Source: a candidate division WOR-3 bacterium UBA5631 (GTDB taxonomy: Bacteria > Hydrothermota > Hydrothermia > UBA1063). From it: a stretch of 64,000 bases of DNA. The first letter of the stretch is position 1, and each line of letters opens with the position of its first letter. Shown here one piece after another: positions 5,270 to 30,994 of this stretch. The stretch covers positions 349-64,348 of the forward strand of contig DIJZ01000024.1 in assembly GCA_002421425.1 (NCBI GenBank), given 5' to 3'. The notes under the pieces were generated by a model that was not told the origin of the DNA, made no database searches, and saw nothing but the letters and a program-made list of their open reading frames with translations. Made by a program: the position numbers and the translations under genes.

Positions 5270-5787
5270 AAGTTGCCTGGTGCATTACCGGTGCAGAAAT
5301 GTTCCTCAATGATGTCATTAGCCTAATCCTCGAAATCGGGCCTGAACGGGCAGAAGTTTTCACATCAAAAGCAGCTGAGGAACTCCTTCTGCGATATAAA
5401 CTCATGGAAAAATTCGCACACTTCAAAGTCCATCCCGACGAACAAACGTCGTACTTTCAAGTTAGAAGACTGTTTTCAGGGAAATTCGACATCGTTGTGA
5501 TTGCTCCATGTTCTACAAATACCATCGCAAAAATGGTCCATGGTATTAGCGACAACCTGGTAACCAACATATTCAGCCAGGCAGGAAAAATAAGGTTACC
5601 AATCTACATACTACCAAGTGATACTGCCGAGGTAATGCAGTTTTCAACAAAAAGCGGCAAAACCCATATTCTCTATTTGAGAGAAATTGACAAAGAAAAC
5701 CTCAGAAAATTGAAAAACTTTGAAGGTGTTAAGGTCCTGGACTCATTTATATCTTTCAGAAACGCAGTAATCGAGGCAATACTATGA
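5266..5787 (+). CDS. flavoprotein, UbiX/PAD1/CoaC-like (FMN-binding decarboxylase/prenyltransferase fold)
   Basis: Motifs MKVAWCITGAE and IAPCSTNTIAKMVHGISDNL resemble the flavoprotein family PCSANTLAK signature. I start the CDS at the internal ATG 5266 (ATGA overlap with the upstream gene stop), not at the upstream frame start 5098. Confidence 0.55.
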   Translation: MKVAWCITGAEMFLNDVISLILEIGPERAEVFTSKAAEELLLRYKLMEKFAHFKVHPDEQTSYFQVRRLFSGKFDIVVIAPCSTNTIAKMVHGISDNLVTNIFSQAGKIRLPIYILPSDTAEVMQFSTKSGKTHILYLREIDKENLRKLKNFEGVKVLDSFISFRNAVIEAIL

Positions 5788-7064
5788 AGAAAATTCCTGA
5801 GGTGTGCATTGTAGGGCGTGTGAATACCGGAAAGTCAACTCTTTTTAACAAACTGATTAAGAAACCTCTTGCCATTACTGACTCAAAACCTGGGTTAACC
5901 AGGGACAGGATTAGAAAACTTGTTTCGTACGCCGATGTTCCTTTTTATCTTACTGACACCGGAGGGTTGTATCCACCCGAAGAGGACAGTCTTTGGGAAA
6001 AGGTTCGTGAGAAAATCGAGAAAACTGTTGAAAGCTCAGAGATTGTGCTTTTCGTCGTGGATGCTTCCCAGGGCGTGCTTCCCCATGACTTTGAAATTGC
6101 AGAATGGCTAAGGAAAAAATCTAAAGAAGTAATTGTTGTTGCAAATAAAATTGACATTAAGAAACAGGACCTCCTTTCATTTTATTCGCTGGGCGTTGGA
6201 GATCCCGTGGGGGTATCAGCAACACATAGCACAGGTCTTCAGGATCTTATTGATGCCATTACTCAAAAACTACAAAAGTTGGGATATACCGGTACAACAT
6301 CGGAAGCCACATCTGAAAAACCAAGATTATCTATCCTCGGGAAACCAAATGTGGGTAAAACTTCCCTCTTTAATGCATTATGTGGAGAAGAAATAAATAT
6401 CATATCATCTGTTCCTGGAACCACAAGGGATTCTGTTGACGTTGAAACTGAGGATTTTATTATAGTAGATACTGCTGGGATCCGCAGAAAGTACGACGAT
6501 GCTGTGGAACTTTACGGAGCTATTAGAAGCGAAAGGTCCCTCAGATTTTCAGAGATTGCAATTCTGGTAATCGATGCCTCACAGGAAATTGCAAACATTG
6601 ATAAGAAAATTGCAAACCTTATCGTGAAAGAGGGTAAAGGAATTGTAATTGCCCTCAATAAAGCAGATCTCATCGAGAAGAAGAAAAGGTCATCAGTGCT
6701 GGACTACATGAAAAGAGAGTTTTCTTTTGTAAATTATGCTCCAATGCTTTTTACATCAGCAATTACCGGTGAGGGACTGAATTTGCTCAAAGAAGTGGTG
6801 AGGAATGGGAAAAAATCGTGGGAGAAACAGTTAACAAAAAGGGAAATACAGGGTTTCATGAGAGAGCTCTCTGAAAAATTCCCTTTTTCTGCGTCGGTTA
6901 TCCGAATCAGGCAAGAAGGAATAAGGCCTCCTACCTTCTCGATTCTCACCAACAAGAAGCTGAGAGGAAATGAGCTGAAATTTATTGAGAACCGACTCAG
7001 GGAAATGTACGGATTTTACGGATCGCCACTTAAGTTAAAAAACATAGTACCAGAGAAAAAGTGA
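5784..7064 (+). CDS. der: ribosome-biogenesis GTPase Der (EngA), tandem GTPase domains + KH-like domain
   Basis: It has two P-loops (GRVNTGKSTLFN and GKPNVGKTSLFN), two DTAG/DTGG motifs and NKID/NKAD motifs. ATGA overlap with the upstream gene. Confidence 0.85.
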   Translation: MKKIPEVCIVGRVNTGKSTLFNKLIKKPLAITDSKPGLTRDRIRKLVSYADVPFYLTDTGGLYPPEEDSLWEKVREKIEKTVESSEIVLFVVDASQGVLPHDFEIAEWLRKKSKEVIVVANKIDIKKQDLLSFYSLGVGDPVGVSATHSTGLQDLIDAITQKLQKLGYTGTTSEATSEKPRLSILGKPNVGKTSLFNALCGEEINIISSVPGTTRDSVDVETEDFIIVDTAGIRRKYDDAVELYGAIRSERSLRFSEIAILVIDASQEIANIDKKIANLIVKEGKGIVIALNKADLIEKKKRSSVLDYMKREFSFVNYAPMLFTSAITGEGLNLLKEVVRNGKKSWEKQLTKREIQGFMRELSEKFPFSASVIRIRQEGIRPPTFSILTNKKLRGNELKFIENRLREMYGFYGSPLKLKNIVPEKK

Positions 7065-7132: not shown

Positions 7133-7161
7133 TTGACTTTTATTCAGTGTGAAATTAAAAT
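7133..7161 (+). promoter_or_regulatory. sigma70-like promoter: TTGACT, 17 nt spacer, TAAAAT; 9 nt before pilT ATG
   Basis: TTGACT is at 7133-7138, followed by an exact 17-nt spacer and TAAAAT at 7156-7161. The ATG is at 7171 and there is no SD sequence. Confidence 0.45.
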
Positions 7162-7170
7162 TAATACACT

Positions 7171-8325
7171 ATGGCAATTGACCTTGAGAGATTGTTGCTT
7201 GATGCAAAAGACAAAGAAGCTTCTGATGTCCATATAAAAGTTGGACATCCTCCAATATTCAGAATTTATGGAAAGCTTTACATGAGAGAAAACTATTCAG
7301 TCGTTACGAAAGAAGATACTGAAGAACTTATCAGGCTATATCTTTCTCCAGCAAAGCAGAAAGAACTGAGAGAGCGTTACAGCGTCGATGTAGCTTTTAG
7401 TTTTCCCAACATTGGACGTTTCAGGGTAAATATATACAGTCAGAGAGGAACCTGGTCCTTCGCTATAAGGGCAATCCCTCCACTTATTAAGAACGTTCAA
7501 GATCTGAACTTACCACCGGTACTTGAGAAAATCGCGCTGGAAGATAGGGGACTAATCCTTGTCACAGGTGTCGCAGGATCGGGAAAATCTACAACCCTTG
7601 CAGCAATTTTGAATCACATCAATATGAACAAAACATCACACGTTGTGACAATTGAAGACCCTATCGAATACCTCCTCCGAGATATGAAGAGCATCATAAG
7701 TCAGAGGGAGGTGGGGCTTGATGTTATGAGTTTTGCAGACGGACTGAGAGAAGCCCTCAGACAGGACCCTAACGTAATTATGGTTGGAGAAATTCGAGAT
7801 CAGGAAACTGCTGAAATAGCTCTTCTTGCAGCGGAAACGGGACACCTTGTGATGTCAACACTTCACACATTGGATGCACGTGAAACAATAAACAGAATAG
7901 TAAGCATCTTCCCAGCTCATCAACAGGAGCAGATTCGTCATCAAATGGCATCAGTTCTAAAAGCTATTATCTCGCAGCGCCTTATTCCGAGGGATGATAT
8001 GCCAGGAAGAATCCCGGCCTGTGAAGTGATGATAAATACAGCACGAATCAAGGAAATGATCCTTGATCCAAAGAAAACCCATGAAATCTTTGATGCCATC
8101 GCAGATGGGTACATACCTTATGGTATGCAGACCTTTGACCAATCTCTTTACTATTGGTATAAATTGGGTTACATTTCCGAAGACACGGCCCTGTCCTATG
8201 CAACAAAGAGAGAAGTACTTGAACTCAGAATGAAAGGGATAGCATCAGGAGGAGAGGGCGGTCGCAACTGGGAAATCTTTGAAAGAATGGCATTGAGAAA
8301 AATTAAGGAGAAAGGAGGCATTTAA
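7171..8325 (+). CDS. pilT: type IV pilus retraction ATPase PilT
   Basis: It carries FRVNIYSQRG…AIRAIP, Walker A GVAGSGKSTTLAAIL, Walker B/Asp box, and a His box VMSTLHT. Its length of 384 aa fits PilT. Confidence 0.8.
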   Translation: MAIDLERLLLDAKDKEASDVHIKVGHPPIFRIYGKLYMRENYSVVTKEDTEELIRLYLSPAKQKELRERYSVDVAFSFPNIGRFRVNIYSQRGTWSFAIRAIPPLIKNVQDLNLPPVLEKIALEDRGLILVTGVAGSGKSTTLAAILNHINMNKTSHVVTIEDPIEYLLRDMKSIISQREVGLDVMSFADGLREALRQDPNVIMVGEIRDQETAEIALLAAETGHLVMSTLHTLDARETINRIVSIFPAHQQEQIRHQMASVLKAIISQRLIPRDDMPGRIPACEVMINTARIKEMILDPKKTHEIFDAIADGYIPYGMQTFDQSLYYWYKLGYISEDTALSYATKREVLELRMKGIASGGEGGRNWEIFERMALRKIKEKGGI

Positions 8326-8327
8326 AA

Positions 8328-8696
8328 ATGGCAAAAATTGATGATGTGATGCAGGAATTCCTCGGAAACGTAGATGAAGTCCTCATGTCGATGATTGTAA
8401 ATATGGACGATGCAATCCCAATTACCGGCCATACTACCGATGAATCTATTGATGTCACAGTTCCTCTCGCATTCCTTACAGAAGTTGCAAGGAAAGCTAT
8501 GTCAGCTACTGATAGTTCGGGTCTTGGTTCCTGTGAAGACGTTCTCTTAACCACAAACGAGTATTTCATAATCATACGCATAATCCCTAATTCGAACTAT
8601 GCGCATATTGTCGTTCTAACGAGAAAAGGAAACTGGGGAGTAACGAAAATTTTGATGGGTAAATTCGCGACGAAGTTCAGGGAAGCTTTACCTTAA
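8328..8696 (+). CDS. Roadblock/LC7 domain protein, MglB-like
   Basis: At 122 aa it has an alpha-beta-beta-alpha-like pattern (…VLMSMIVNMDDAIPITGHT…HIVVLTRKG…) typical of the roadblock/LC7 fold. It starts 2 nt after the pilT stop and lies next to mglA. Confidence 0.5.
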   Translation: MAKIDDVMQEFLGNVDEVLMSMIVNMDDAIPITGHTTDESIDVTVPLAFLTEVARKAMSATDSSGLGSCEDVLLTTNEYFIIIRIIPNSNYAHIVVLTRKGNWGVTKILMGKFATKFREALP

Positions 8697-8776
8697 GAAT
8701 TATAGAGAATATAGAACAATTTAAACCCTTCTTTTCTCTGATTATTAACTTTAATAAGCGCTGAATTAAATTTTAA

Positions 8777-9409
8777 TTATTTCTTTTGCTGCTGCTGTTG
8801 CTGATGAATCAGGAAGTTCAGTTGTTGCTGTCTTAAAGAATACTTAACTACTTCGTTGATCATTTGTTGAAGGCACTGAAATACACCCTTCCCCTCGGTA
8901 GCGATGGAGAGAACGTATGGATATTTGTAGATGTTAACTTTCTCCTCCATGACCGGAACAGGAAGAGCATTTGGATCGTCTCTTTTGTTATACTGAACAA
9001 TTATCGGAACTTTTTTAGTAGCAGACCACATCCCAAATTCCGTAAGGGAATCGTGCATTTCCTTGTATATCGCTATGTTTTCTTCAAATCTTTCTGGGTT
9101 CGAGTCAGCGACAAAAATAACTCCATCAGCACCCTTAAGGACCAGTTTCCTTGCTTGTTTATAGAATACTTGACCTGGAACAGTATAAAGGCTGAAGATC
9201 GTCTTATAGCCCTTTAATATAGGAAGTTCTAAGGGCAGTAGATCGAAAAATAGAGTTCTTTCTCCTTTGGTATCAATAGACAGAAGCTGCCCCTTTTTGC
9301 CTGAAAATCTCTCATAAATTCTCTTGATGTTTGTCGTTTTCCCGCTCAAACCAGGACCATAGTATACGATCTTGAACTTTATTTCGTGCTTTTTAAAGTC
9401 AATTAACAC
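8777..9409 (-). CDS. mglA: Ras-like small GTPase MglA with Gln-rich C-terminal tail
   Basis: KIVYYGPGLSGKTTN is the characteristic MglA P-loop, and TKGERTLFFDLLP the switch region (MglA RTLFFDFLP). It has an NKRD G4 motif and a C-terminal QQQLNFLIHQQQQQQKK. Confidence 0.8.
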   Translation of the reverse strand: MLIDFKKHEIKFKIVYYGPGLSGKTTNIKRIYERFSGKKGQLLSIDTKGERTLFFDLLPLELPILKGYKTIFSLYTVPGQVFYKQARKLVLKGADGVIFVADSNPERFEENIAIYKEMHDSLTEFGMWSATKKVPIIVQYNKRDDPNALPVPVMEEKVNIYKYPYVLSIATEGKGVFQCLQQMINEVVKYSLRQQQLNFLIHQQQQQQKK

Positions 9410-9450
9410 AAGAACTCCCCAGATAAATTATAATGTGATTCGAAGGAACT

Positions 9451-10908
9451 TTACAGTACCTTTGCGATCTCTGTAATGAGCTCTTTGATCTTAATCTTCA
9501 CCAGTGCAATCTTCATGCTCTTAACAGGGATAACTGCAACGATAATCAAACTGCCGTTCCTAGCGTCTGTAATGAGAATATGATACTTATCTGAAGCAAG
9601 AGTAATATCTTTTATCGTGCCAATTGATGTCCTGGAAGCAGATTGGATAATGTTCTTGAAAGCAGGTGCCCAAATCTTGAGTACCTGTGTGACACCCGTA
9701 GAAATCCGTTCTGAGATATTTAAAATGTTCCCTTCTCCATCAATGGCAACAAGGGCCTGAATGTCAGATATTTCTTTTACGACACTGGCACACTTATCTC
9801 GCAATTCCTGACTTAGTTTCGATGTTACAACTTTGGCTTCTTCTGAGGGTCCTTCGATTTTTCTTTCTGTGACATGTTCTATTTCCTGAACTGGAATCTC
9901 AATCTCTTCCCTTTCTAACTCCTCAGAGGCTGGGGCTACTTCCTTTTCTTCTTTCTCAGCATGTTCTTCAATTTTCTCAACATGAGAAACTTCCAGTGGA
10001 ACCTCTTCACCCATACCCTCAAGCAAACTCTCAACTTCCTCTAAAGTCACCACAGGCTCTTCTTTTTCCGGTTCTTCAATAGAAGGTTTGACTTCAGGAA
10101 CTTCTTCTATCGGGACAACAAAACTCTCTTCCTCAATAGGAACTTCCGCCTTAGGTGCCTCTGCCTCCTCGGAAACTCCCTCATCTTTAAAGAGCTCCGA
10201 GAGTGCCTGTAGATCTATCCCAGATATTTCCTCCTGAACTGCTACCTCTTCATCCTTTTGGACGGCAGCAGAGAGAAGCAAAGCGTGAAAAGGTTTTTCG
10301 ATTTCCCTCTTAACCTTCGGGCTACCCCACTTTACTTTAAAGGAGCTATCCGGTTCCCTTAGTATCCTGTTGAATGCCTCTTCACCTCTTAATTTCCCTA
10401 TGGAAGCATTAACTACCTCACCCTCCTCAAGGAAAATTTTTCCTTCTCCCTCAGAGGTATTTACCATTACTTCACAGGATTTGCCTTCCATCGATACAAG
10501 TTGCAGGAACTGTTGTAACGTAAGGTTCTTCAGTGTTTCTTCCTCTCCACCTTTCTCTTTCTCAACTATAACCCCAAGAATCTGGTCGAAATCAAAGGGT
10601 TTCTCCAAGTAGCTTATTGCACCTTTTGCCATTACGTCTTGCCTTATCTCGTCGGAACCATAGGCAGTCATAACGATCACTTTAATTTCTGGCTGTACTT
10701 TTCTGGTCTCCATGAGAAGCTCCACGCCGCTTAGACCCGGCATTCTAATATCCGTTATCAAAAAATCAAACTGTTTCTTCTTTATTTTCTCGAGGGCCTC
10801 AAGTCCGTTTGATGCCGTATCCACATCTATCTTATTTCGGCTAAGTTCTTCGGAAAGTCCCCAGAGAATGTCCTCTTCATCATCAACGATAAGAACCCTG
10901 ATGGGCAT
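9451..10908 (-). CDS. response-regulator receiver / DUF4388-like / poly-Glu linker / C-terminal Roadblock-LC7 hybrid protein
   Basis: The N-terminal REC domain has VLIVDDEE, DIRMPGLSG and a VMTAYG-type motif. The middle region (TLQQFLQLVSMEGKSCEVMV…) resembles DUF4388/PATAN-like domains. A roughly 150-aa E/P/V-rich acidic low-complexity stretch follows. The C-terminal ~110 aa (ALVAIDGEGNILNISE…) is roadblock-like. Confidence 0.6.
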   Translation of the reverse strand: MPIRVLIVDDEEDILWGLSEELSRNKIDVDTASNGLEALEKIKKKQFDFLITDIRMPGLSGVELLMETRKVQPEIKVIVMTAYGSDEIRQDVMAKGAISYLEKPFDFDQILGVIVEKEKGGEEETLKNLTLQQFLQLVSMEGKSCEVMVNTSEGEGKIFLEEGEVVNASIGKLRGEEAFNRILREPDSSFKVKWGSPKVKREIEKPFHALLLSAAVQKDEEVAVQEEISGIDLQALSELFKDEGVSEEAEAPKAEVPIEEESFVVPIEEVPEVKPSIEEPEKEEPVVTLEEVESLLEGMGEEVPLEVSHVEKIEEHAEKEEKEVAPASEELEREEIEIPVQEIEHVTERKIEGPSEEAKVVTSKLSQELRDKCASVVKEISDIQALVAIDGEGNILNISERISTGVTQVLKIWAPAFKNIIQSASRTSIGTIKDITLASDKYHILITDARNGSLIIVAVIPVKSMKIALVKIKIKELITEIAKVL

Positions 10909-10920
10909 AATTACACCTCC

Positions 10921-12303
10921 TTATCCTTTTTTCAAACAACCCATTGCTTCGGGTGTTATAGTATGAAAGTATAGCACAAAACTCGTGCCTTTTCCAACTT
11001 CTGAAAACACCCTAATCAAACCCTTGTTTTCCTTCACCATTTTGTCCACTACATATAGCCCAAGCCCCCATCCCTCAGCCTTCGTGGAGAAACCAAGGTT
11101 AAAAATCCTCTCAATATCTTCCTTCTTTATACCTGGTCCTGTATCTCTGACAGCTATTTCCAGAAAGTTGCTACCACAGTAAGGGCATCTCGTATCACTC
11201 CTCTTAGCAACAACCTGAATCTTACGTAACCCCCTGACATTCTTCATCGCATCAATTGCATTCTGCACAAGATCGGAAAGGATCTGCTGGAAATGAACCT
11301 CATCGGCATATATAGAGTCATTTCCATCCTGGGCAAACTCAAAAATAATTCCATTGTTAATAATGTCATTGCTCAGGAGGGATTTTACCCTATCAACGAC
11401 CTTTTTCACGTTACACTTCTTGAATTCAGTGGGTTTGGTCTTTACTCTGCTATAAAACGCCCTTACATGATGATTAATCTTATCGATATGCTTTATCATT
11501 CTATCGACCATTTCAAGGTGTACCGGCGAATCCAGTTGCCTCTTCAGGTTTAATGCTGTGAATTTCAAAGGAGTAAGTAGATTTTTTATGTGATGAGTAT
11601 AAATAGAAACCAGATCTACATATGAAAAATAACCCCCTGGTCCACCTGCAGATTTTTCAAAATTCTTTTCTTCGGTAATATCCTTCAACTTGATAATATA
11701 GCCTTTCAATTCGGCCTGCTCCAGATGGTATACATTTACTCCCACATACTGCCCGGGAACATATTCCAGATCAATGTTTTTCTGACCGAGACGTATTCTC
11801 TCAATTAACTTATTTCCGAGACCAAAGGGCAGTTGTTCGAGATGAACAAAGGTGTGTCTCTGAAAATAACTTGAAATGAAATTGTTATGAAACAAAACTC
11901 TGAAGTCCTTGTCTACGACTATTATTCCAAAATCCAGGTAATCAAGTACGGCTTTTTCTGGCCCTTCAGACTCTTCCTTTTTCAGGAACAAGAATATCTT
12001 TTCACCAGAAGCAAAAAACGTCATTACGTAAGGAACGTAAGTGTTTTCTCTGCTCCTCAAAATCACCCTCTGTCCAAAGAAAATTCTGTTCGTAGCCTCA
12101 TTTAGCTTCCTCTCCACTAAAGGTCTGACATGCCCCGCAACAAAATTCATGAAGTTATTGCTGAGGACCTCTTCTTCCGAATATCCAAGTGCCTTAATGC
12201 CATCACTTGCATAAAGAATGTATTTCTTTCCATCAAGAATAAGGTATATATCGGAACTTAATGAGAGTAACCTGTCTATTTCGCTGGTGCCAACAATTTC
12301 CAT
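10921..12303 (-). CDS. cytoplasmic PAS-domain sensor histidine kinase
   Basis: No TM segments. It has N-terminal PAS-like repeats, an H-box THHIKNLLTPL, an N-box LVQNAIDAM, G1 VRDTGPGI and G2 GWGLGLYV. Confidence 0.75.
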   Translation of the reverse strand: MEIVGTSEIDRLLSLSSDIYLILDGKKYILYASDGIKALGYSEEEVLSNNFMNFVAGHVRPLVERKLNEATNRIFFGQRVILRSRENTYVPYVMTFFASGEKIFLFLKKEESEGPEKAVLDYLDFGIIVVDKDFRVLFHNNFISSYFQRHTFVHLEQLPFGLGNKLIERIRLGQKNIDLEYVPGQYVGVNVYHLEQAELKGYIIKLKDITEEKNFEKSAGGPGGYFSYVDLVSIYTHHIKNLLTPLKFTALNLKRQLDSPVHLEMVDRMIKHIDKINHHVRAFYSRVKTKPTEFKKCNVKKVVDRVKSLLSNDIINNGIIFEFAQDGNDSIYADEVHFQQILSDLVQNAIDAMKNVRGLRKIQVVAKRSDTRCPYCGSNFLEIAVRDTGPGIKKEDIERIFNLGFSTKAEGWGLGLYVVDKMVKENKGLIRVFSEVGKGTSFVLYFHTITPEAMGCLKKG

Positions 12304-12312
12304 TAATATAAC

Positions 12313-13593
12313 CTATTCAGATAAGATCTGCAGCGCAAAGGAGGAATTATGAAACCATTTATACTCTGGTTTAGGCCTCAAGAATTCGCCAAAAGTCGTA
12401 AATCCAATAACAGGAACTGCAAGTTTCCTCTGAAACAAGTTCACCTCAGAGAAGAAATCCGCCCCAAGAGAAAAATAGCGATGAAGGCTCTCCATTACAA
12501 TCGCACCAAGGGGTTTATGTTGATCAACATAAGTAAAAGCTTCATCTATACTCTGAGATACTGCTTCCGTCATCCTGTCTTTTCTCGCTTCCATTAACCA
12601 AACTGTTGAATTCTCTGGTATGTCTCCCGCTAACTTGATCCCACCTTCTCTCGTAATCCCGACAGCAATCCTCACTTTTGGATATTTTGGAAAATTCGGA
12701 TCTGGAACCCCAAACTGGTATCTACCAAGAAATTGTGTAGGATCTTTAATAATTTCTGCCTCTGATATTCCTTTCTTAACGAGGAACTCTTTCCAGACCT
12801 CAAAGGCAGGGCGGTCATCCAGGTGATATATTATGTTTCCGCCAACTTTTGTGGCTCTCTTGGGAACTATCGGATGCAGACCGTGACCGTATCCCATAGC
12901 TGCTGGATTCTTCGAATAAATCCCAATGCATACGATTCCACCGTTTACAACCTGGTTGGCAACGTGTAACTGACATTCCTTCGATAGCTCGGCAAAATCT
13001 AAAATTCCTCCATAGAACGAAATACCCGGGTCATACCTGTCTACAATCCTTGACAACTCGGTGACAAGGACATCTCCATTAATGTATGAATCCATTAACA
13101 GGAAAAGATTTAAGAATTCGTAACCTTCTGCTTTTCTTGCCCTGATCTGGTCGAGTATGGGTAAGCACGCCTTTTCCAGCGCAGAGTGAAGGCCCTGGTG
13201 TATATTAGCACCAAAAGAGTATATAATCCTGAAAGAATCACTCTTCACTACAGCAGCAATCACTCCTGAAGATACTATCTGCCCCTCATTAAAGATCACT
13301 CCGAGCGTCTTTACACCAACGTAAGGCACATCCTTTCCAACAGATTGCAGCACGCCTTTTACAACAGGTTCAAGTTCATAACCAGCCGTTGCACCAATCA
13401 GAACAAAATCTGGTTTTGCCCTTGAAAGTTTTTCCCACGCACTCTTACCAGCTTGAACTCCAGCCTTCCAGGGCGAGGGATCTTCTGAAATACCAGTAGT
13501 CATTCCAGTCACATAAATAGGCCGTTCAGATGTTACTTCCCCCTCTGCCCCTTTACCCACGCCTATTTTAGGGGCAGTAGGTTCTCTTTGCAT
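12313..13593 (-). CDS. FIST-domain sensory protein (FIST_N + FIST_C)
   Basis: It is a roughly 400-aa soluble protein whose C-terminus PVIGFTTFGEF matches the FIST_C GFY(S/T)YGEI signature. The N-terminal region is FIST_N-like. It sits 10 nt upstream of the histidine kinase. Confidence 0.55.
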   Translation of the reverse strand: MQREPTAPKIGVGKGAEGEVTSERPIYVTGMTTGISEDPSPWKAGVQAGKSAWEKLSRAKPDFVLIGATAGYELEPVVKGVLQSVGKDVPYVGVKTLGVIFNEGQIVSSGVIAAVVKSDSFRIIYSFGANIHQGLHSALEKACLPILDQIRARKAEGYEFLNLFLLMDSYINGDVLVTELSRIVDRYDPGISFYGGILDFAELSKECQLHVANQVVNGGIVCIGIYSKNPAAMGYGHGLHPIVPKRATKVGGNIIYHLDDRPAFEVWKEFLVKKGISEAEIIKDPTQFLGRYQFGVPDPNFPKYPKVRIAVGITREGGIKLAGDIPENSTVWLMEARKDRMTEAVSQSIDEAFTYVDQHKPLGAIVMESLHRYFSLGADFFSEVNLFQRKLAVPVIGFTTFGEFLRPKPEYKWFHNSSFALQILSE

Positions 13594-13696
13594 TTTCTTC
13601 CACCAATCATCGTTCAGGAAAATTTTCTAATCCTCCTTTTAGTCACTCTATATTAATAAAGCAAATTCAGTCAAAAGTCAAGAAGTCCCGTTTGTT

Positions 13697-16192
13697 TTAT
13701 TTATTTGACGCGGAAAGCCAGCTGTCCCCCACTCCAATCTCTACTCTCAGAGGGACACTAAGAGTTACATTTGCTTCCATTTTTTCCTTCACTATTTCCT
13801 TAGCTGCCTCTACCTCTGTCTCGGGCACTTCCAGGAGCAATTCATCGTGAACCTGCAATATTATGCGGGAATTCATCGATTTTCTTTTAAACTCCTCATA
13901 TATTTCTACCATACCGAGCTTGATAATATCGGCAGCCGTCCCCTGAATAGGCGTATTGATGGCGATTCTTCTACCCTGTTCAAATAGATTTGGGTCTCCA
14001 GAATTCAAATACGGAATACGGCGTATCCTACCGAATAGTGTCTTCACGAAACCGTTCTTCTGTGCGAAATCGACATTCAGCTGAATCCACTTCATTACAC
14101 CCGGGAAAGATGCAAAGAAGTTTTGAATAATTGCCTCTGCCTCACTTTGAGTCACATTTAATTCTTTGGCAAGTCCGTAGGGAGAAATGCCATAAATAAT
14201 TCCAAAGTTTACGGTTTTTGCTTTCCTCCTCTCACTTTCTGTGATCTCCTGGATCCGTTTGCGAAAAATATAGGAGGCAGTCATAGAATGAACATCCAGA
14301 TTATTCTCAAAGATCTCCTTAAGATTCTTATCTCCCGAAAAATGAGCAAGGATTCGCAGCTCAATCTGAGAGTAGTCAGCGGTCATAATCTTGTAACCCT
14401 TTTCAGGTACAATAATGTCCCTAACACTTCTTCCAAGTTCTGACCTCACAGGGATAGTCTGAAAGTTTGGATTTACGCAGGAAATCCTTCCCGTTGCTGC
14501 GCCTACCTGATTGTACGTAGGAAAAATCCGGTGACTCTTTTGATCCACGAGGTTTATAAACGCGTCAACATAGGCACTCTTCAGTTTAAAAACCTCCCTG
14601 TAATCGAGGATCGCTGCAGGAAGGGGATGAATCTCGGCGAGTTTTGCGAGAGTCTCCTCATCAGTAGAGTATCCTGTTTTTGTCTTCTTCACGGGCTTCA
14701 ATTTATGCTTCGTAAAAAGGACTTCTGCGATCTGCTTGGGTGAATTAATGTTAAACTTCGTTCCCGCCAAATCGTAAATCTTCTCCTTAATCTCCTCTAG
14801 ATTTCTGGCCATCTCTTCGCTCATTTTTTCTATTTTGTCGACATCAATCTTAATTCCAACTTCTTCCATATCCGCAAGGACTTTCTGGAGTGGGAGTTCG
14901 ATCTTCTCCAGAACTTCCTGAAGGCACCACCGCTGAATTTCCTTTTGAAGTAAATTATAGGCAATTCTAGAGGCAGCGCAAATCTCTGCGACCCTTCGTT
15001 CTTCGTTATCCCGAGAAAGTCCGATACCTGAATATTCGAGAAAAATTGTCTCCGGGTCGAATTTTGGTCTATCACTGTCAAGCAAAAATGCGGAAATCAG
15101 AATATCAAAATCAAAATGAATGGTCTTCTTTATTTTTTTGAACTGCTTCTTCGTTTCGAAGGATATAATTCTACCACGGAATTTGTCAAGGAATTGAATA
15201 CCAGCATCTAGAGGAATCCTGTAGACCACCTTTCCATTAGAAGAAATTAAGACATTTTCATTGAAACATTCAACAGAAATTACCTCTGCATTCAGCAAAT
15301 CCATAGGAATGAATGTTGTTTCAACCAACTCTACACTGGGTTTTTGAGCAATTTCTCGCATAAGTGAGTAAAATTCCATTTCACCAAAAACCTTGAAAAG
15401 CTTCTCCTTATTCCACTCCCTGACTCTTAAATCCTCTAGATCGAATTCTATTGGGATGTTATCCCTGAGTTTAACAAGGCTAAGTGCCTCAAAGAACCTA
15501 TCCTTGTAGGACTTTATGTGTTCAATTATCTCGTCTTTTACGTCAGGACTTTCCATCCTTTCAATGATGTTTCCATAGTTTCTTATGAGTTCTGCAGCAG
15601 TTTTTTCTCCTATGCCCGGGATTCCCGGGACGTTATCAATCTTATCACCTGTTAGAGCAAGAAGAATCGGAATGTCCTGAGGTTTAACACCAAACCTATC
15701 TTCAATGTCTTTTTCAGTTAGAATCTTAACTTCTCCCTGCCTCGTGTCAACGATTTTTATGCGCTCACTCACAAGCTGAAAAAGATCTTTATCCAAAGAA
15801 GCAATGAAGACCTCCATTCCCCGTCGTTCAGCCTCTTTACCGAGAGAAGCAATCACATCATCAGCTTCCACCTCAGGAATTTCAAATCTCTTTATGTTGA
15901 ATCCATCAAGTATTTCTTTAATATAGGACAACTGTATTACAAGGTCAAGAGGTGTCTTTGGCCTCTGGGCCTTATAGTCTTCAAAGATCTCGTGCCGGAA
16001 AGTTTTACCCTTTGCATCAAATATAACAGCAATATGTGTCGGCTTTATCTCATTCAGGAGCTTGAGCAAAGAGTTTGTAAAAGCGTAGGGCGCACTGGTT
16101 TTGATTCCCTTGCTACTTATGAGTGGTTTGTCTTTAAATGCAAAATAGGATCTGTAAGCCAGCGAAGCACCATCAATCAAGAGTAATCTCAT
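13697..16192 (-). CDS. polA: DNA polymerase I
   Basis: The N-terminus is a 5'-3' exonuclease (MRLLLIDGASLAYRSYFA). The C-terminal polymerase domain has motifs DYSQIELRILAH, RRKAKTVNFGIIYG and QVHDELL. Confidence 0.9.
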   Translation of the reverse strand: MRLLLIDGASLAYRSYFAFKDKPLISSKGIKTSAPYAFTNSLLKLLNEIKPTHIAVIFDAKGKTFRHEIFEDYKAQRPKTPLDLVIQLSYIKEILDGFNIKRFEIPEVEADDVIASLGKEAERRGMEVFIASLDKDLFQLVSERIKIVDTRQGEVKILTEKDIEDRFGVKPQDIPILLALTGDKIDNVPGIPGIGEKTAAELIRNYGNIIERMESPDVKDEIIEHIKSYKDRFFEALSLVKLRDNIPIEFDLEDLRVREWNKEKLFKVFGEMEFYSLMREIAQKPSVELVETTFIPMDLLNAEVISVECFNENVLISSNGKVVYRIPLDAGIQFLDKFRGRIISFETKKQFKKIKKTIHFDFDILISAFLLDSDRPKFDPETIFLEYSGIGLSRDNEERRVAEICAASRIAYNLLQKEIQRWCLQEVLEKIELPLQKVLADMEEVGIKIDVDKIEKMSEEMARNLEEIKEKIYDLAGTKFNINSPKQIAEVLFTKHKLKPVKKTKTGYSTDEETLAKLAEIHPLPAAILDYREVFKLKSAYVDAFINLVDQKSHRIFPTYNQVGAATGRISCVNPNFQTIPVRSELGRSVRDIIVPEKGYKIMTADYSQIELRILAHFSGDKNLKEIFENNLDVHSMTASYIFRKRIQEITESERRKAKTVNFGIIYGISPYGLAKELNVTQSEAEAIIQNFFASFPGVMKWIQLNVDFAQKNGFVKTLFGRIRRIPYLNSGDPNLFEQGRRIAINTPIQGTAADIIKLGMVEIYEEFKRKSMNSRIILQVHDELLLEVPETEVEAAKEIVKEKMEANVTLSVPLRVEIGVGDSWLSASNK

Positions 16193-30831: not shown

Positions 30832-30909
30832 GGCGCCATCGTCTAGTCTGGCTAAGGATACCTGGTTCTCAGCCAGGAGACCCGGGTTCAAATCCCGGTG
30901 GCGCTACCA
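30832..30909 (+). tRNA. tRNA-Glu (anticodon CUC), CCA encoded
   Basis: Sequence GGCGCCATCGTCTAGTCTGGCTAAGGATACCTGGTTCTCAGCCAGGAGACCCGGGTTCAAATCCCGGTGGCGCTACCA, with anticodon loop TT-CTC-AG. Confidence 0.85.
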
Positions 30910-30910
30910 C

Positions 30911-30982
30911 TGGGGGATCGTCTAACTGGCAGGACAGCTGACTCTGGATCAGCCGGTCGGGGTTCGAATCCCTGTCCCCCAG
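30911..30982 (+). tRNA. tRNA-Gln (anticodon CUG)
   Basis: Sequence TGGGGGATCGTCTAACTGGCAGGACAGCTGACTCTGGATCAGCCGGTCGGGGTTCGAATCCCTGTCCCCCAG, with anticodon loop CT-CTG-GA. It sits 1 nt after the tRNA-Glu CCA. Confidence 0.85.
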
Positions 30983-30994
30983 TATAATAAATAA

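Follow-up and report, generated by a model that had tools for sequence, protein, structure and literature searches.

Can a two-component system act directly on a Ras-like polarity GTPase and thereby reach a type IV pilus motor? This question is raised by six genes in contig DIJZ01000024.1 of the candidate division WOR-3 bacterium UBA5631 (Hydrothermota, Hydrothermia), which we analyzed within a window of 64,000 nucleotides (64 kb), the whole stretch of DNA considered here. The genes form two convergent groups, one encoding a pilus ATPase and a small Roadblock protein, the other a FIST protein, a histidine kinase, a response regulator and the small GTPase MglA. We propose, with a probability of roughly one half, that these groups constitute a two-operon module of WOR-3/Hydrothermia through which a NosP-like three-component phosphorelay is connected to a Ras-like polarity GTPase and to a type IV pilus motor.

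Layout of the locus

The six open reading frames (ORFs) of the module span positions 7171-13593, two on the plus strand and four on the minus strand according to the ORF list of the window (lengths in amino acids, aa):

7171-8325, plus strand: pilT, encoding a PilT/PilU-family type IVa pilus ATPase, 384 aa (T2SSE, E=3.7e-49; TIGR01420)
8328-8696, plus strand: MglC-family stand-alone Roadblock protein, 122 aa (family profile, hidden Markov model (HMM) and predicted structure)
8777-9409, minus strand: mglA, encoding a Group-1 MglA small GTPase, 210 aa, GTG start (phmmer search of the PDB, motifs)
9451-10908, minus strand: response regulator, 485 aa, consisting of REC, PATAN, a Glu-rich disordered linker and Roadblock (Pfam and AlphaFold2)
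10921-12303, minus strand: soluble PAS-type histidine kinase, 460 aa (HATPase_c, E=3.9e-20; H-box, G1 and G2 motifs)
12313-13593, minus strand: stand-alone FIST_N plus FIST_C putative sensor, 426 aa (FIST_N, E=3e-18, and FIST_C, E=2.2e-20, above gathering scores)

The minus-strand genes are separated by 9 nucleotides (nt; FIST to kinase), 12 nt (kinase to regulator) and 41 nt (regulator to mglA), and judging from this spacing they are very probably co-transcribed. On the other strand, only 2 nt lie between the pilT stop codon and the start of the 122-aa ORF, and a GGAGG-type ribosome-binding site is located inside the 3' end of pilT. The 122-aa gene and mglA converge, with 80 nt between them, and a crude scan of this interval (8697-8776) revealed no terminator-like hairpin. 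None of the six module proteins contains transmembrane-like segments. PilT scores 436.9 bits (E=5.4e-131; cut-off 319.1) on the NCBIfam model TIGR01420 (pilT_fam), which covers PilT and PilU alike.

Most of what the original prediction, made from the letters alone, had said about these genes holds. The positions of the six ORFs were exact, and the minus-strand gaps, given there as 10-42 nt, needed only the small correction to the values above. Profile and phmmer matches agree with the proposed identities of PilT, MglA, the FIST protein and the soluble PAS histidine kinase, and the Pfam domains, the C-terminal profile and the AlphaFold2 model all bear out the proposed regulator with REC, DUF4388, acidic and Roadblock parts. 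The two checks that it had named, namely profile support for MglA, Roadblock and FIST and conservation of the neighborhood in relatives, both came out in its favor, the Roadblock assignments by way of family profiles and the conservation in loci L094/L095, L096 and L011-L013. Its compact FIST-kinase-regulator-MglA unit facing a pilT-Roadblock pair is likewise conserved and very probably co-transcribed. The nature of the small Roadblock protein is a different matter.

The Roadblock protein next to pilT is of the MglC type

Single-sequence searches with the 122-aa protein produced no match in Pfam (E<=10, including Robl_LC7), in NCBIfam or, with phmmer, in the PDB, and family profiles were required both for this protein and for the C-terminus of the regulator because single sequences yielded nothing usable. 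A profile of the 122-aa family (A6) retrieved MglC of Myxococcus xanthus (7ct3) with E=1.3e-11, aligning residues 2-119 of 122 with residues 1-118 of 120, whereas MglB in the PDB obtained only E=0.24 with the same profile; profile A2 by itself reached MglC with E=0.0032. The difference is also seen in HMM comparisons, in which the protein scores 125.7 bits on the MglC-like model and 2.2 bits (E=0.1) on a model of canonical MglB that we built from 60 MglB genes located directly upstream of mglA; stand-alone Roadblock proteins in sister loci score 63-138 bits on this MglB model.

The AlphaFold2 model of the 122-aa protein, with a predicted local distance difference test score (pLDDT) of only 67.5, displays an alpha-beta-beta-alpha-beta-beta-beta topology, and all 50 PDB matches listed by Foldseek have the Roadblock fold (best E=8.6e-5), among them Roadblock/LC7 dynein light chains and Ragulator/LAMTOR subunits. 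As the MglC family requires, the protein is about 120 aa long and devoid of N- or C-terminal extensions; it ends with the Roadblock core, with no additional C-terminal helix. In sister loci, the MglB proteins whose genes adjoin mglA measure 135-165 aa, with acidic tails on the ones from L005 (159 aa) and L013 (165 aa). By these measures, the 122-aa protein is a member of the MglC family and not an MglB. The earlier identification of this gene as mglB was therefore correct with respect to the Roadblock fold and wrong with respect to the MglB label, and the claim that mglB shares a transcription unit with the retraction ATPase gene has to be dropped, given that the protein beside pilT is of the MglC type.

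Relatives of the 122-aa protein are rare: an exhaustive HMMER search recovered only 128 cluster representatives among 1.84 billion. Of the 60 that we examined, 30 correspond to the C-terminal domain of a PATAN protein, and REC is present in 15 of these proteins as well; only three of the 60 reach Pfam Robl_LC7. A direct alignment of profiles with hhalign connects the 122-aa family to the C-terminal Roadblock family of the regulator (98.3% probability, E=1.3e-14). Because half of the examined closest relatives are fused to PATAN, the two Roadblock types of the locus are tied together. Within the 64-kb window, the 122-aa gene is the sole stand-alone Roadblock gene; no canonical MglB was found there, and neither was any other Roadblock, PATAN, PilB-like or PilC gene.

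A receiver-fused Roadblock domain in the mglB position

The classical position of mglB, immediately upstream of mglA, is occupied by the gene for the response regulator, in which we delineated the following parts (all on the minus strand):

10558-10899: REC domain (Response_reg, E=1.9e-28)
10246-10539: PATAN (DUF4388/PatA_N) domain, aa 125-221 (PF14332, 50.2 bits against a cut-off of 25)
9844-10236: acidic disordered linker, aa 225-355 (43 Glu residues, net charge -35; pLDDT <50)
9454-9810: C-terminal Roadblock/LC7 domain (profile A1 against the PDB; 123 bits on our own HMM)

In the AlphaFold2 model, REC covers residues 1-120 and PATAN 131-229; residues 230-355 are disordered, and Roadblock occupies 356-484. 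The last domain is modeled with a pLDDT of about 89 and consists of a helix (356-379), two strands, a second helix (406-425), three strands and a closing helix (467-484). The PATAN assignment (Pfam DUF4388/PatA_N, E=3.3e-13) is reinforced by a score of 122.3 bits on our own PATAN HMM. In the receiver domain, D9, D10, D53, T81 and K103 are invariant across 36 homologs. The linker is 34% acidic, and acidic linkers of the orthologs vary in length from 75 to 401 aa.

The C-terminal domain does not reach Pfam Robl_LC7, and a BLASTP comparison with a Robl_LC7-positive homolog was negative as well. A profile of 18 homologs (A1), however, matched Roadblock structures in the PDB, namely 9jue (E=4.8e-6), CvnB5 (3leq; E=6.4e-6), MglB (E=3.8e-5) and, much more weakly, MglC (E=0.087), and distant full-length homologs of the regulator carry Robl_LC7 at the same C-terminal position. 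According to precomputed Pfam domains, REC, PatA_N and Robl_LC7 occur together in 37 of the 120 best homologs listed; the names attached to these and to related REC-PATAN homologs listed include Calditrichota, Thermodesulfobacteriota and Desulfobulbales. The Roadblock domain of the regulator forms a separate clade with a weak likeness to both MglB and MglC.

The GTPase, the kinase and the FIST protein

The identity of MglA is clear from the phmmer search of the PDB, where MglA of Thermus thermophilus (3t12, E=2.7e-59) and of M. xanthus (E=5e-52) are followed, as the next best match, by Arf at 1e-6. The protein contains the P-loop GPGLSGKT, E50-R51-T52, T76VPGQ80 and NKRD, and R51, beside the G2 Thr, is the intrinsic Arg finger. 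It has the properties that define Group-1 MglA (Wuichet & Sogaard-Andersen 2014), that is, a single domain of <240 aa, the Arg next to the G2 Thr and the G3 motif TVPGQ, together with Roadblock genes within four genes of mglA; here, these are the adjoining upstream Roadblock domain and the convergent Roadblock protein, neither of which is a canonical MglB. MglA also ends in a Gln-rich C-terminal tail, QQQLNFLIHQQQQQQKK (8777-8854, minus strand), that is absent from the Thermus and Myxococcus proteins; among orthologs, the tail ends in SRQQQQK in L013 and is basic, without poly-Q, in L094, L011 and L012.

The kinase possesses an H-box with H237 (HHIKNLL), a G1 box (DTGPG at 387) and a G2 box (GWGLGL at 411). 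Its PAS_9 (3.3e-5) and HisKA (0.008) matches are both under the gathering score, and HisKA is called in orthologs. Catalytic and phospho-acceptor residues are thus intact across the kinase, the receiver and MglA, and adjacency alone suggests that kinase and regulator are a cognate pair. A CPxCG (CxxC) insertion follows the N-box and precedes the G1 box of the kinase (aa 373-376; 11176-11187, minus strand) and has a weak match to Zn_ribbon_19 (E=0.0045); it is kept in the window, L011 and L094 and missing in L012, L013 and L005.

FIST orthologs occupy the same position in L011, L012, L013 and L094. A word-indexed homolog search with the FIST protein reached only WOR-3/Hydrothermia relatives, none of the source names being NosP, and no homolog was detectable in the PDB.

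Conservation of the gene neighborhood

The complete six-gene layout recurs in L094/L095, directly after pilS-pilR-pilin genes, with an MglC-like protein 66% identical to that of the window. In L096, a T2SSE (pilT-like) ATPase gene is followed by an MglC-like gene that converges on the mglA C-terminus, at 37% identity. Shorter versions of the minus-strand unit are found in further loci: FIST-kinase-regulator-MglA in L011 and L012, the latter with a convergent MglC-like gene and with pilW/X/Y1 upstream; FIST-kinase-regulator-MglB-MglA in L013, these three loci coming from other WOR-3/Hydrothermia lineages; and kinase-regulator-MglB-MglA in L005/L006. In L007/L008, whose lineage is untyped, pilMNOPQ, a kinase and a sigma54 regulator (a PilS/PilR-like pair) precede a regulator-MglB-MglA-CheW-TPR series. 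Regulator and mglA are adjacent, with or without an intervening mglB, in seven of the nine sampled regulator loci. A genuine MglB is encoded between the two in sister lineages (L005, L007, L013), and mglA directly follows the regulator gene in L011, L012, L094 and the window; in the MglB-less loci L001, L011, L012 and L094, no MglB was found within the fetched flanks, which extend 7-10 kb on each side where the contig allows. The pil genes beside these modules differ, being pilT (window, L094, L096), pilWXY1 (L012), pilMNOPQ (L007) and pilC (L009). Conservation of this synteny in relatives rules out a chance adjacency.

For a broader view, we surveyed mglA in species-representative genomes from many phyla, using the best 80 of 594 tblastn hits, a non-random sample whose proportions are no more than indicative. 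Canonical mglB lies directly upstream of mglA in 60 of the 80 loci and a PATAN gene is nearby in 13; REC-PATAN ORFs and PilT-like genes occur in two loci each, a FIST-MglB-MglA-kinase series in one (L022), and a PATAN-Roadblock fusion in none of the 80. The association between this type of regulator and mglA is therefore genuine and extends to lineages beyond that of the window, yet it is a minority architecture. FIST and the pilT/MglC-like additions are found together only in WOR-3/Hydrothermia-type loci, and FIST stands beside mglA once elsewhere, independently, in L022.

Several of these loci have features of their own. L022 (8333-11814), from a metagenome-assembled genome (MAG) labeled Thermotogota, lacks a response regulator, and its FIST-MglB-MglA-kinase series resembles a conservon-like direct arrangement of kinase and GTPase. 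Downstream of regulator-MglB-MglA in L007 (10535-14023; also in L008) are genes for a 471-aa protein, with CheW at its C-terminus, and for two TPR proteins; the TPR proteins could be effectors of MglA resembling SgmX. In two lineages, mglA is directly followed by an AAA+ ATPase gene, of the MoxR/AAA_3 type in L005 (10446-11318) and of the Clp/AAA_2 type in L013 (6373-7677). In L009, we considered whether the 205-aa gene that comes after the regulator gene is mglA and rejected this; REC-PATAN-Roadblock genes are thus not always located beside mglA. There is also no mglA near the REC-PATAN homolog P0089 (MAG locus L097; NCBI label Caldithrix abyssi). A different wiring of PATAN and two-component proteins to mglA is seen in L015 and L026 (~8746-13900), from Deltaproteobacterial/Desulfomonilaceae MAGs, where a hybrid kinase and receiver cluster is followed by REC-PATAN, MglB, MglA, PATAN, further genes and a second Roadblock gene. 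In L024, L034, L078 and L087, which come from Gemmatimonadota/Longimicrobiales and unclassified MAGs, two to three tandem Roadblock genes upstream of mglA are flanked by duplicated-PATAN proteins.

Relation to known systems

Among the closest known systems is the polarity module of Myxococcus xanthus, with which the locus shares a Group-1 MglA with Arg finger and TVPGQ, an MglC-family protein of about 120 aa, Roadblock domains beside mglA, a link to type IV pili and a receiver combined with an acidic disordered region as in RomR. In Myxococcus, RomR, MglC and MglB form a complex in which the FDI motif of MglC contacts the KRK motif of MglB, and MglA-GTP breaks the contact between MglC and MglB (PMC10329633, PMC7949163); MglC neither binds MglA-GTP nor affects the activity of the GTPase-activating protein (GAP) (PMC10329633). 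Unlike in Myxococcus, no canonical MglB is encoded in the locus, a REC-PATAN-acidic-Roadblock fusion takes the mglB position, the mglC-like gene is paired with pilT, and no RomX or RomY was identified. Input also differs: in Myxococcus it comes from the Frz chemosensory system and no RomR kinase is known, whereas here a FIST sensor and a kinase are encoded in the same predicted operon. In RomR itself, REC is followed by a linker rich in Pro and a C-terminal region rich in Glu, with no other fold, and to this the regulator adds PATAN and Roadblock; judged by this domain composition, the regulator is not a RomR, and the likeness is functional and architectural only.

PATAN genes near mglA and mglB have been reported repeatedly (Makarova et al. 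2006; Wuichet & Sogaard-Andersen 2014; Han et al. 2021). In Synechocystis, the PATAN domain binds PilB1 and PilC, and the domain alone binds PilB1, is membrane-localized and reverses phototaxis (bioRxiv 10.1101/2021.06.11.447907). As in PatA-type regulators, DUF4388/PatA_N is joined here to REC, in a genomic context linked to mglA/mglB and type IV pili; unlike in these regulators, which have the order PATAN-REC and belong to a chemotaxis-like system, REC precedes PATAN and the partner is a FIST/PAS kinase, not CheA. The sensory part resembles NosP/NosK(NahK)/NosR, in which a stand-alone FIST protein binds heme and nitric oxide (NO) and determines how fast the neighboring kinase autophosphorylates (PMC12570481, PMC8846402): in both cases, a stand-alone FIST_N plus FIST_C gene lies beside genes for a cytoplasmic histidine kinase and a response regulator. 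NosP systems have a cyclic di-GMP enzyme as output, in contrast to the PATAN-Roadblock output and GTPase of this distant phylum.

The linkage of a kinase to Roadblock and an MglA-family GTPase is also characteristic of actinobacterial conservons (CvnA kinase, CvnB Roadblock, CvnC, CvnD GTPase). Those, however, comprise a Group-2 MglA (GTPGQ, no Arg finger), a membrane kinase and CvnC with no response regulator, as opposed to the Group-1 MglA, the soluble kinase and the bona fide receiver domain found here. Finally, as in the canonical mglBA of Thermus thermophilus and most mglA loci, a Roadblock-domain gene lies immediately upstream on the same strand, but instead of a stand-alone MglB it encodes a 485-aa regulator of which Roadblock, from a different clade, is the C-terminal quarter.

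The claim that this wiring had not been described was thus overstated, considering the known neighborhoods of PATAN and mglA, the widespread REC-PATAN-Robl_LC7 proteins, FIST/kinase/regulator sets and conservon-type links of kinase, Roadblock and GTPase, and the wiring is only partly new. What stands of it concerns the specific combinations: our literature searches retrieved no paper on a characterized REC-PATAN-Roadblock regulator, on an MglA module with a FIST/kinase pair of its own, on an MglC-type gene paired with pilT or on an mglA locus whose only upstream Roadblock domain is receiver-fused.

Proposed mechanism and alternative explanations

The mechanism that we favor is a signal-gated Roadblock platform. 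The FIST protein would bind a small ligand (heme/NO in the case of NosP) and modulate the autokinase activity of the adjacent kinase, which would in turn phosphorylate D53 of the regulator. The regulator would join a RomR-like REC and acidic disordered region to a Roadblock domain encoded where mglB classically lies; this domain would dimerize and stack with a dimer of the MglC-like protein, as in the Myxococcus RomR/MglC/MglB complex, an arrangement that the presence of a separate MglC-type protein suggests. The stacked platform might then bind, inactivate or position MglA-GTP, and phosphorylation could shift its assembly or localization so that an environmental signal would set MglA activity directly. 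PATAN may contact the pilus motor, as the Synechocystis PATAN domain does with PilB1/PilC, and co-expression of the MglC-like protein with PilT would tie the switch to pilus retraction or placement. We favor this scheme because of the NosP-like triad, the RomR-like regulator, the MglC-type protein, the PATAN-pilus precedent and the recurrent pil genes.

A number of points weigh against it. Each mechanistic step is one that we infer for an uncultured host; the interactions, phosphotransfer and GAP activity are predictions, and so is control of pilus retraction by the module. The operon structure is deduced from spacing, and the crude terminator scan found none between the module genes. The FIST protein matches no NCBIfam model, and its heme binding is predicted by analogy. 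The FDI motif of MglC (F25, D26 and I28), a surface that binds MglB, is only partly kept in the 122-aa protein, with D28 and I30 retained and F replaced by M/L (by M in the window), the family consensus at this position being D-G-x-x-I. The Roadblock domain of the regulator is weakly and ambiguously MglB-like (16.2 bits on the MglB HMM, 12.2 bits on the MglC-like one), which makes a GAP role for it a conjecture. Linkage to pilT is absent in L011, L012 and L013, the REC-PATAN(-Roadblock) genes of L009 and L097 have no mglA neighbor, and a canonical mglB may be present elsewhere in the genome, beyond the 64-kb window.

How far the regulator itself replaces MglB is the point on which the most serious alternatives diverge. 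In the strong form of the favored scheme, which we put forward tentatively, canonical MglB has been lost, its role has been taken over by the Roadblock domain of the regulator with the MglC-type partner co-expressed with PilT, and the FIST/kinase pair gates GAP activity or sequestration by phosphorylation. It is equally conceivable, if doubtful, that the regulator and the MglC-like protein are polar scaffolds or adaptors only, like RomR and MglC, with the GAP MglB encoded elsewhere and the two-component system setting the location of the scaffold and not the GTPase cycle. The RomR-like REC and acidic region and the MglC-family membership, which suits an adaptor, agree with this, as does the retention of MglB between regulator and mglA in L005, L007 and L013, from which it follows that in these lineages the regulator Roadblock coexists with MglB instead of replacing it. 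On the other hand, no MglB was found in the 64-kb window or in the fetched flanks of L001, L011, L012 and L094, and the direct succession of regulator and mglA in four loci would be an odd site at which to lose the sole GAP gene unless the loss was compensated. That the 122-aa protein is itself an MglB-type GAP moved into the pilT operon, the Roadblock domain of the regulator being an extra RomR-like recruiter, we consider unlikely. Its Roadblock fold, its standing as the only such stand-alone gene in the window, the Joint Genome Institute (JGI) annotation that files it under the COG 'Roadblock/LC7/MglB family' and the conserved convergence of pilT-Roadblock and mglA (L094/L095, L096) could be read that way, but the profile (E=1.3e-11 for MglC against 0.24 for MglB) and HMM scores (125.7 against 2.2 bits) and the length of 122 aa, without the C-terminal extension of the 135-165-aa MglBs of sister loci, contradict it; moreover, Myxococcus MglC shows neither MglA-GTP binding nor a GAP effect (PMC10329633).

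A further possibility, rather improbable in our view, is that the phosphorylated regulator acts mainly through PATAN on the motor ATPases or PilC, with MglA and Roadblock as secondary aids to localization. The activity of the isolated Synechocystis domain, which binds PilB1, is membrane-localized and reverses phototaxis, and the recurrence of pil genes of different kinds beside the modules speak for such an output, whereas the tight regulator-(MglB)-MglA adjacency in seven of nine sampled loci argues that MglA is central, the REC-PATAN order is unlike that of PatA-type proteins and the window contains no PilB or PilC gene. The housekeeping genes on both sides of the module (polA, der, NAD synthase) and the predicted nature of the operons might even suggest neighbors without functional coupling; with gaps of 2-41 nt and with order and orientation kept across lineages down to 37% protein identity, amid different flanks, such an incidental arrangement is extremely improbable and, because of the conserved synteny, effectively refuted.

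If the signal-gated platform operates as proposed, it bears on a problem that persists in Myxococcus, where it is still unclear how phosphorylated regulators (FrzX, FrzZ, RomR) act on MglA, MglB and MglC. With receiver and Roadblock in one polypeptide, kinase and sensor in the same predicted operon and MglA as the next gene, the step from phosphorylation to the GTPase could be reconstitutable from four to five soluble proteins, and such a compact link should be of interest to specialists in bacterial polarity. Replacement of MglB by the regulator, if true, would mean that a two-component system feeds into a small-GTPase cycle in a single step, which is undemonstrated in bacteria. The analysis also defines a small PATAN-associated MglC-like Roadblock subfamily that occurs both fused to PATAN and free beside pilT, and it offers a concrete hypothesis for the role of PATAN-MglA neighborhoods, noted since 2006 but never tested.

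Flanking regions and transcription signals

Each gene group of the module is preceded by a candidate sigma-70-like promoter, in both cases identified from a consensus match only:

7133-7161, plus strand: candidate upstream of pilT (TTGACT-17-TAAAAT, 10/12)
13645-13674, minus strand: candidate in the 103-nt polA/FIST gap (TTGACT-18-TAGAGT, 9/12)

Over the whole region, 19 sigma-70-like sites were counted against 14.3 +/- 3.7 in shuffles, which is no enrichment. The der/engA double-GTPase gene (5784-7064, plus strand) ends 106 nt upstream of pilT, whereas in L094 the corresponding position is occupied by the pilS-pilR-pilin genes and an ABC transporter; this difference in the neighbors of pilT indicates that the module has changed its position with respect to the pilus cluster. 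Four metagenome assemblies contain identical copies of the locus, and the names attached to homologs point to candidate division WOR-3 / 'Candidatus Hydrothermia' as its host. Farther downstream in the window (30832-30983, plus strand), predicted genes for tRNA-Glu(CTC) and tRNA-Gln(CTG) abut with zero spacer.

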